From the IMG/VR virus record IMGVR_UViG_2718218452_000011: DNA of 49,640 nucleotides; one strand, written 5' to 3'. How positions within the stretch are numbered: position 1 is the first letter of the stretch; each line of letters begins with the position of its first letter. The DNA is from a virus (Duplodnaviria > Heunggongvirae > Uroviricota > Caudoviricetes). A model generated the notes under the pieces. The model saw nothing but the letters and a program-made list of their open reading frames with translations. It was not told the DNA's origin and did no database searches. Below are positions 26,987 through 29,602 of this stretch, in pieces. The position numbers and the translations under genes were made by a program.

Positions 26987-28000
26987 AGTGGCAGAACGCA
27001 TCAGGGACGGAACCGTACCGTCTCCGGTGAAATTCTCCAACATGTGGTTGGTGAATTTGCGCATAACCGGAACCGGGCTTGCCTATCGCGCCGGGCTGAA
27101 AGAGCACGTCTGGCGTGATCCAAAGCTCTATCTGAACGAGGAGTTTTTAAGGCGATGCAATGGCCTTCCGGTTATCACAAACCATCCTGACGACGCAGTT
27201 CTGACGGAGGAGGATTTTAAATCGCGGATCGTCGGTAGCGTCATGCTGCCGTATATCCGGGGTGATGAGGTATGGGCGGTGTGCCGCGTTTACCTCCAGA
27301 GCATTGTTGAAGAAATCACTGAGGGGGATGTTTCGACAAGTCCGTCGGTGGTGTTCAACAGCACATCAGGAAATGTGGAAGTACAGGAAGGTGACACCAA
27401 TTTTTTAATCGAGGGCGTTCCTTTCCTGGTTGATCACATCGCCCTGGTGACGAAAGCCCACGGCTCGCTGGGTGTGTGGGATAAAGACCGGATCCCCGCA
27501 GGGGTTGAAGTGACAAACACAGGTGAAATCGAGATGGAAAAAGAAGAACTCCAGGCCCTGTTACAGGGGGTTGTGAGCGATGCCCTGCAAGGCATTAATC
27601 AGAAAATCGATGGTGTCGTTACGCGCATGGACTCACTGGAGCAGCGGGACAAAGCGCGGGCGGATGCCGAAGAACAGGCGAAAAAAGAGGCCGAAGAAAA
27701 GGCCAAAGCCGATGAAGCCGCAGAGGAACAACGTAAAGCTGATGAAGCTGCGGCAAAGGAGGCGGAAGAAAAAGCCAAAGCTGACGAGGCGGCAGCTAAA
27801 GACGCTGAGGAGAAAGCAAAGGCTGATTCCGAAGCGGAAGAACAGCGTAAGGCTGCCGAGGAGGCAGAAAAAGAACGCAATGACTCAGCCCTGGCAGAAG
27901 CACAGGCAAAAGCCGACTCCGCATTCAGTGCCTGCGGTAAAAACGCGCCAGCACCGTTTTCTGGTGAAAATGCGCTGGACTACCGCAAGCGTGCGCTAAT
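26967..28000 (+). pseudogene. 5' part of head protease/scaffold-like gene interrupted by an IS insertion
   Basis: Track ORF 26967..28040 runs 40 nt into the IS inverted repeat before stopping; contains an Ala/Glu/Lys-rich coiled-coil repeat typical of scaffolds; 3' part resumes in frame after the IS. Confidence 0.6.
27640..27900 (+). repeat. Degenerate in-frame tandem repeats encoding (A)EEKAKADEAA-type units
   Basis: Protein segment ..KEAEEKAKADEAAEEQRKADEAAAKEAEEKAKADEAAAKDAEEKAKADSEAEEQRKA..; coding repeat, not a CRISPR array. Confidence 0.55.
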
Positions 28001-28042
28001 TGAACCGCCCCGGGTTTCCTGGAGAGTGTTTTATCTGTGAAC

Positions 28043-28930
28043 TCAGGCTGCCAGATCATTATTTCCGATGGAAGCATAATAAGCTTTTTCTGCTTCTGCC
28101 GGAGGAATATGGCCCAGCCTTTCCAGCAATCGTCGATTGTTATACCAGTCCACCCACGTTAGTGTGGCCAGTTCCACTTCTGTCCGGTTTTTCCAGCTCT
28201 TACGGTGTATTACCTCCGCTTTGTAAAGACCATTGATGCTCTCAGCCATCGCGTTGTCATACGAGTCGCCAGTACTCCCTGTTGATGCCAGTAATCCGGC
28301 TTCCTTAAGCCGCTGCGTGTAGGCCAGCGATACATACTGAGAACCTTTATCACTGTGATGGATTGTGCCGGACGGCCGACGGGCCCACAACGCCTGCTCC
28401 AGTGCATCCAGCACGAATGTTGTTTCCATGGATGATGAGACCTGCCATCCCACGATGTATCCGGCGAACACATCAATGATGAACGCCACATAAACGAAGC
28501 CCTGCCATGTGCTTACCCAGGTAAAATCAGCCACCCACAACTGGTCTGGACGTTCTGCCACGAACTGACGGTTTACGCGGTCGCATGCGGCAACGGCTTT
28601 CCGGCTGACGGTAGTGCGGACCTTTTTACCCCGGAGAACACCGGCAAGTCCCATAACTGCCATGAGACGTGCCACAGTGCATCTGGCCACTCTGATACCT
28701 TCCCGTAACAACTGACGCCAGACTTTACGCACACCGTATACCTGGTGATTTTCATCGTATACGCGCTGTATCTCTTTCTTCAGCCAGTCATCGTGCTGCG
28801 CACGGGCACTGCGTTTATCCGGATGATGTCGCTGTTGCTGACAATGGTAATACGTTGACGGGGCAATATGCAGTTCGCTGCATACCGGTCCGACCCCGTA
28901 CTGCTCACGCAGCTTATCCAGCAGTGGCAT
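28043..28930 (-). CDS. IS3-family transposase OrfB (DDE integrase core, 295 aa)
   Basis: DDE-type motifs (..WVADFTWV.., ..HSDKGSQY.., ..DNAMAESINGLYK..); -1 frame relative to orfA. Confidence 0.85.
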   Translation of the reverse strand: MPLLDKLREQYGVGPVCSELHIAPSTYYHCQQQRHHPDKRSARAQHDDWLKKEIQRVYDENHQVYGVRKVWRQLLREGIRVARCTVARLMAVMGLAGVLRGKKVRTTVSRKAVAACDRVNRQFVAERPDQLWVADFTWVSTWQGFVYVAFIIDVFAGYIVGWQVSSSMETTFVLDALEQALWARRPSGTIHHSDKGSQYVSLAYTQRLKEAGLLASTGSTGDSYDNAMAESINGLYKAEVIHRKSWKNRTEVELATLTWVDWYNNRRLLERLGHIPPAEAEKAYYASIGNNDLAA

Positions 28931-29256
28931 TATTTTTTCCAGAGGCGGTCGAACTCCGCCTTCGCAAAATAAGCGGAAGCCTGGCGAAGGATATCGTTAC
29001 TGCGGCGCAGTTCACGATTTTCACGTTCCAGCTCTTTCAGACGCTGACGTTCAGCGGTGGTGAGTCCACCATCACCACTCCCGGTATCCCGCTCATGCTG
29101 GCGAACCCAGACACGCAGAGTCTCCGGCGTACAGCCAATCTTTGGGGCAATGGAACAAATTGCCGCCCACTGTGAGTCATATTCATCCTGACTTTCCAGA
29201 ACCATACGAATCGCCCGCTGACGGACTTCGGGGGAAAAACGAGTATTTTTAGTCAT
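28930..29256 (-). CDS. IS3-family transposase OrfA (HTH and leucine zipper, 108 aa)
   Basis: [22 protein letters not shown]..; ends ..FDRLWKK with an A AAA AAT run at the orfA/orfB junction, the usual site of programmed -1 frameshifting in IS3 elements. Confidence 0.85.
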
Positions 29257-29310
29257 CCTGTTTACCTCTTTCTCAGGGAGTTTAGTCTCCAGGATTTCCG
29301 GGGCGGTTCA

Positions 29311-29602
29311 AATCGCTATGCAGAAACACTCTCCGGCACATAAGGACGTCAATATTCGCGCGATTGCGGATTCTGCAACGCTGGCTGTGCTTGAGGACGC
29401 AATTTTCAGTGCCGCCCGTCAGTCCATCGAAAAAGAAATGATGAGTACGCAGGGGCAACTGCATAAACGTATCCGCAACGATGAAGCCGGACGTCGCATT
29501 ACTGAATATCAGGGCGATCCGAACGTCTGGCTGAGTGCTTTCAAAATTCCGGGGCGTCGTCTGGCAAAAATTAACACTCAAGGGAGCCTGAACAATGGCT
29601 GA
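29311..29602 (+). pseudogene. 3' part of the IS-interrupted head protease/scaffold-like gene
   Basis: Deleting the IS plus one AAT copy joins ..KRALI to AMQKHSPAHKDVN.. in frame (reconstructed about 441 aa). Confidence 0.55.

Follow-up and report, generated by a model that had tools for sequence, protein, structure and literature searches.

The window, the whole stretch of 49,640 nucleotides that was analyzed (IMG/VR record IMGVR_UViG_2718218452_000011), matched the finished circular chromosome of Escherichia coli C7 (NZ_CP010240.1), a bovine isolate, with 100% identity along its whole length; window positions equal positions in that record minus 3,338,087. Its left end is the integrase gene intR, adjoining ttcA, and its right end lies ∼1.1 kb short of the last prophage gene, with uspF beyond; the window is essentially one full-length Rac-type prophage of roughly 51 kb at the classical rac site. 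Within it, a gene for a DUF2213 protein is split by an insertion sequence, IS629, and RefSeq already annotates the locus in C7 as an IS3 transposase between two pseudogene fragments. The features, in order along the window, are:

17679-18420: split AraC-family gene, 247 aa, HTH_18/HTH_AraC, between the DUF1133 gene and the holin gene
26967..28000, plus strand: DUF2213 gene, 5′ portion (codons 1-345, the last of them completed at its third position by an IS base)
26967-27461, plus strand: protease domain, about residues 1-165 (domain search, fold model)
26967..28040, plus strand: truncated ORF, 345 native residues and a 12-residue IS-encoded tail, EPPRVSWRVFYL, then a stop codon (ORF list)
27735..27826, plus strand: 2.2 copies of a 42-bp tandem repeat, within the part coding for the coiled coil (repeat search)
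27998..28000, unstranded: left copy of the AAT target-site duplication (flank and empty-site comparison)
28001..29310, minus strand: IS629 (IS3 family), 1310 bp, its transposase running antisense to the late operon of the phage
28001..28025, unstranded: IRR, the terminal inverted repeat on the 3′ side of the transposase, TGAACCGCCCCGGGTTTCCTGGAGA (end comparison)
28043..28930, minus strand: orfB, 295 aa from its ATG, in the -1 frame with respect to orfA; HTH_21 and rve (DDE) domains (ORF list, domain search)
28859..28975, minus strand: ALIL pseudoknot RF01497, stimulator of programmed -1 frameshifting (Rfam, 120 bits)
28930..29256, minus strand: orfA, 108 aa, with an HTH_Tnp_1 domain (ORF list, domain search)
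29286..29310, unstranded: IRL, the terminal inverted repeat on the 5′ side of the transposase, agreeing with IRR in 22 of 25 positions
29311..29313, unstranded: right copy of the AAT target-site duplication (flank and empty-site comparison)
29314..29602, plus strand: 3′ part of the DUF2213 gene, codons 346-440 and the stop codon, encoding a conserved C-terminal domain (ORF list, alignment)

The ends of the element (TGAACCGCCCCGG...CCTGGAGA), compared with their reverse complement, matched at 22 of the first 25 positions and diverged beyond, and both the length of 1310 bp and the termini (TGAACCGCCCCGG... and ...CCGGGGCGGTTCA) are those of an IS3 element (∼1.2–1.5 kb, with imperfect 5′-TG...CA-3′ repeats). 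The coordinates, length, and imperfect repeats given in the initial annotation proved exact, and its assignment of the element to the IS3 family as IS629/IS1203-like was upheld by an identity of 99.5% over 1310/1310 bp to the copy in phage BP-4795 that is annotated as IS629; identity was 98.3% to copies in many Stx2a-converting phage records and 99.8–99.9% to copies in O103, O121, and other strains. The expected domains were recovered in orfB (rve, E = 1.5e-26; HTH_21, 2.7e-18) and orfA (HTH_Tnp_1, 9.8e-12), and RefSeq treats 28043..29256 as a single intact frameshifted transposase CDS. The two frames overlap at IS positions 315–381, where two candidate slip sites occur, U UUU G and A AAA AAU (28938), the former a few bases upstream of the first stem of the ALIL pseudoknot, for which the Rfam cut-off is 50 bits. 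Judged by its sequence, the element has every testable defining feature of IS3/IS629, predicted frameshifting included. Known IS629 copies (isoforms IS1203 and IS3411, from Stx phages and EHEC prophages) have the same length of 1310 bp, TG...CA termini, orfA/orfB −1 frameshift, ALIL pseudoknot, 3-bp duplication, and preference for prophage DNA, and differ from this one in insertion site only. A target duplication of 3–4 bp has been reported for IS629, and in O157 genomes prophages harbor 62% of its copies (PMC3271280).

Inspection of both flanks showed that the direct repeat around IS629 does not extend past 3 bp; since a 3-bp repeat by itself has a chance of 1/64, the decisive evidence is the empty site. 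Deletion of IS629 together with one AAT joined 26967..28000 to 29314..29602 in frame (1326 nt, 440 codons plus stop), and an 800-bp query excised in silico in this way was found in one piece, with 100.0% identity over 800/800 bases, in six E. coli genomes (EC11, A17, JNU, JNEC-KY180, mip270_05, and mip270_22). Among 5,426 complete genomes, the uninterrupted sequence was present in 79 and the filled site in one, that of C7. In a blastn alignment with A17, the left flank stopped at subject position 20400 and the right flank began at 20398, so both flanks claim a single AAT (20398–20400). The 800/800 match and the A17 alignment thus confirmed the empty site in uninterrupted homologous prophages, and the single AAT there confirmed the proposed duplication at 27998-28000 and 29311-29313.

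Along its full length, the restored protein was 100% identical to P0001, a known protein of 440 aa found on 39 contigs; the uninterrupted gene corresponds to WP_000059667.1. The initial annotation had rejoined the two ORFs in frame as one gene, which was correct, and had given a product of 441 aa, which counted the stop codon. A natural separation of the flanking ORFs, with their in-frame fusion a coincidence, is refuted by the single CDS that spans the site in every intact relative examined (Rac-SA53, vB_Apl-pPE4, A17, and EC11), by the identity of the fused product with the protein on the 39 contigs, and by the 79 uninterrupted genomes. The repeats were present and the flanking ORFs were not separate genes in relatives, the two points named in the initial annotation as able to refute the insertion. 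It is also hardly credible that IS629 was misplaced during assembly: about seven places in the C7 chromosome match the query, which makes the element multi-copy there and gives such an artefact its opportunity, but the perfect 3-bp duplication and the junctions lying exactly at the termini indicate real transposition rather than repeat collapse, and the record is a finished circular chromosome. The structural part of the interpretation, a simple and clean transposition of IS629 into the gene, is essentially certain. The suggestion that the insertion was recent is consistent with the identical flanks, the perfect duplication, the occurrence in 1/5,426 genomes, and the undecayed neighboring genes, from which no date is obtainable.

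The order of genes around the insertion is portal (PHROG 146), head morphogenesis (PHROG 324), DUF2213 gene, a 205-aa ORF, and probable major head protein, and the location of the DUF2213 gene between the portal and probable major capsid genes is as expected of a prohead protease. Residues 46–164 of its product matched Pfam DUF2213 (PF09979) with 27.5 bits (gathering threshold, 22 bits), and in PHROGs it matched its own family of unknown function and, weakly, three “head maturation protease” families. A first homologue search returned near-identical E. coli proteins only and a profile search brought diversity; the DUF2213 protease-scaffold family comprises 776 clusters when grouped at 50% identity. 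An alignment of 78 diverse members showed His73, Ser123-Thr124-Ser125-Pro126, Glu149, Asp156-His157, and Trp171-Asp172 to be invariant; this invariance and the predicted fold point to His73, Ser125, and His157 as putative catalytic residues.

A fold comparison was needed because the PDB, searched by sequence with both the single protein and a profile of 40 sequences, gave coiled-coil noise only. An AlphaFold2 model built on the homologue alignment was confident for residues 1–160 (pLDDT 83–96) and also for about 290–430, with a long helix at 248–322 and mostly low confidence at 186–246; an Ala/Glu/Lys coiled coil lies at about residues 190–322. Foldseek returned zero individual matches at E ≤ 0.001 against the PDB, where the list was dominated by herpesvirus proteases and gp21, none individually significant, and 90 matches at this threshold against predicted viral structures, the named ones being mostly prohead/capsid-maturation proteases or protease-scaffold proteins. 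The modeled N-terminal domain has an assemblin-like fold, with sequence similarity to T4 gp21 and herpesvirus assemblin undetectable (8–18% identity). By fold and conservation, it is predicted to be a gp21/assemblin-fold prohead (capsid maturation) protease, and the initial description of the gene as head protease/scaffold-like is supported by both the fold and the gene position. The protein joins this protease to the long coiled coil and a conserved C-terminal domain, as in protease-scaffold fusions. In such fusions and in scaffolding proteins, a C-terminal domain anchors to the coat protein inside the procapsid; by analogy, the coiled coil and C-terminal domain may form a scaffold and coat-binding module here as well.

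The literature on DUF2213 holds no functional data, and the one paper mentioning Rac-SA53 deals with its toxin genes rather than the head gene. The allele of Rac-SA53 (L002 5367-6659) encodes 430 aa against 440 here, a difference of 10 codons that, with the 42-bp repeat, suggests a repeat-length polymorphism in the scaffold helix. Most of the distant relatives (P0271-P0347) bear an N-terminal NUDIX domain, to which a few (P0314, P0320, and P0334) add an ADP-ribosyltransferase domain (PF03496); enzymes fused to the prohead protease/scaffold could end up packaged inside capsids. Neither the E. coli gene nor its 3′ fragment has a NUDIX domain, and the wrong labels “nudix” and “NUDIX hydrolase” that they carry stem from these NUDIX fusions in relatives. 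In Burkholderia cenocepacia, a Tn-seq/CRISPRi study called the DUF2213 domain of BCAM1066 “essential” (PMC8770471); given the prohead-protease fold of DUF2213, BCAM1066 is probably a prophage head gene, and its essentiality may need another explanation.

The insertion removes the C-terminal 95 residues and spares the protease domain together with most of the coiled coil; the final codon of native sequence, Ile345, takes its third base from the first position of IS629. The cut falls inside a conserved block, with Gln313, Ala316, Asp317, Ala327, Gly333, Glu334, Tyr339, and Arg342 before it and His350, Ser351, Glu372, Asp378, Ala379, Gly404, and Gly412 after it. The 3′ part is now an orphan 94-aa ORF that starts at the native Met347 (29318), upstream of which neither a Shine-Dalgarno sequence/ribosome-binding site nor a promoter was recognizable. 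Terminator-like matches on the sense strand were not commoner than in shuffled sequence, so the downstream capsid genes are probably still transcribed. An outward-facing −35 of the kind found in IS3, by which IS629 might drive downstream genes, was also considered, and a consensus scan found no promoter-like site.

From these features it could be argued that the insertion is phenotypically mild and that virions are still made, either because the truncated protein works or because the orphan ORF complements it: the entire protease domain and about 130 coiled-coil residues are kept, the in-frame ATG at Met347 opens the orphan ORF, and terminator-like signals are not in excess. We regard this as rather improbable, since the lost 95 residues hold invariant or near-invariant positions across the family of 776 clusters, which argues that they are required; the conserved C-terminal block, with conserved residues on both sides of the junction, is cut in its middle; and the start at 29318 is preceded by no recognizable Shine-Dalgarno sequence or promoter. 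The retained protease domain and coiled coil might nonetheless confer some partial function. Complementation by a second DUF2213 copy was considered as well; a single place in the C7 chromosome matched, and no second protease gene was found in C7 down to about 65–70% DNA identity, so complementation from another prophage is unlikely.

Outside the interrupted gene, 26 A17 proteins from terL to the tail-fibre-assembly gene were compared with C7, and all were full length there, including the terminase, portal, capsid candidate, and baseplate proteins; 21 were identical, three more were at least 99% identical, and two distal tail proteins were 94–95% identical. IS629 is thus the only lesion in the head/tail morphogenesis module, and the annotation shows intact genes for integrase, excisionase, replication, and lysis. 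Elsewhere, compared with A17 and EC11, the AraC-family gene has lost 2 bp near 18154 (CGCG to CG), which is a second prophage lesion or possibly a sequencing error, and in the early region RefSeq marks a DNA-binding gene as frameshifted. IS629 may therefore not be the sole defect of the prophage.

Had the prophage already been defective, IS629 could have landed in a gene no longer under selection, as a symptom rather than a cause of decay. Such a history would accord with the 2-bp deletion in the AraC-family gene upstream of the lysis cassette, with the frameshifted early gene, and with the preference of IS629 for prophages (62% of O157 copies; PMC3271280). It is unlikely, however, given that 26/26 compared proteins are full length and 24/26 are at least 99% identical to those of A17, that the genes for integrase, excisionase, replication, and lysis are listed as intact, and that the AraC-type gene looks accessory and not a core phage function.

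Among the relatives, Rac-SA53 (KU052037) and the full-length Rac-type prophages of A17, EC11, and W share with the C7 prophage its ttcA/intR attachment region, its order of genes, and its head/tail module, and their head gene has 94.5–100% DNA identity to that of C7; the DUF2213 gene is uninterrupted in all of them, whereas it is split in C7. The slot between lysis and terS holds LT-IIa toxin genes in Rac-SA53 and ParB_N and TAGT genes in C7. This pair (20440-22150) consists of a ParB_N protein and then a TET-associated glycosyltransferase (TAGT, PF20691, E = 1.7e-35), the former matching the N-terminal part of a PADLOC type II methyltransferase model; the pair could be a DNA-modification cassette. 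The right end of the prophage (48954-49637) encodes an RmrT-like protein (PADLOC PDLC03935, E = 1.4e-59), and the gene after it, already beyond the window, encodes a 368-aa HTH protein; the two are probably an anti-phage defence pair carried as cargo.

Three further observations concern annotation. Of the domains of type I restriction R subunits, a 386-aa protein embedded among the baseplate genes (41571-42728), identical in A17 and EC11, has just the N-terminal one (HSDR_N). The gene at 24769-26208 is labeled “anti-CBASS protein Acb1 family protein” by RefSeq, yet it matches Phage_portal_3 in Pfam and PHROG 146 (E = 6.7e-75) and occupies the expected position of the portal gene. The record “Actinobacillus phage vB_Apl-pPE4” (PP818812.1) has 98.1% identity to the 800-bp empty-site query and the gene order of a Rac-type prophage, and its attribution to an Actinobacillus pleuropneumoniae host looks doubtful.

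The whole is best explained by a clean IS629 insertion that knocked out the C-terminal part of the protease-scaffold, to which we assign a probability of roughly 0.9; that the prophage is thereby unable to build mature capsids is likely but less secure. One copy of IS629, an element with a copy-out-paste-in DDE transposase, transposed into codon 345/346, with duplication of the target AAT, and the protein is cut after residue 345, with loss of the conserved 95-residue C-terminal domain. If, by analogy, this domain is what ties the protease-scaffold to coat protein within the procapsid, then its loss would mean that mature capsids are not built, while the prophage would probably still excise, replicate, and lyse the cell, and its accessory genes would stay in the host. 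An inducible, lytic prophage that lacks mature head assembly and keeps its accessory genes is accordingly the likely phenotype by analogy with known scaffolds, and the initial statement that the prophage is unable to make capsids can reasonably be inferred.

Because the flanks are identical to those of functional alleles, precise excision of IS629 would restore the gene exactly and in full. The IEE protein promotes excision of IS629 (PMC9943667), and IEE-mediated excision of IS600, also of the IS3 family, restores lacZ (PMC9397093). With IEE in the host, the insertion might then act as a reversible lock, in which the host keeps the RmrT-like defence gene, the ParB_N/TAGT pair, and recET until precise loss of IS629 lets a sub-population resume virion production. 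This possibility, which leans on the intact remainder of the morphogenesis module and on the documented IEE excision of IS3-family elements, seems quite improbable.

The insertion of IS629 into a prophage gene is an event of a well-documented kind, and the C7 instance was already known from the RefSeq annotation; IS629 in prophage genes being a well-documented source of E. coli prophage inactivation and strain diversity, the general importance of the clean insertion is small. For the interrupted gene, an annotation as a protease-scaffold fusion, with a prohead protease of the gp21/assemblin fold, can be made with fair confidence, and it corrects the misleading public labels “TolA,” “nudix,” and “NUDIX hydrolase.” For the protease-scaffold family, C7 provides a natural C-terminal truncation with which the role of the conserved C-terminal domain could be tested.
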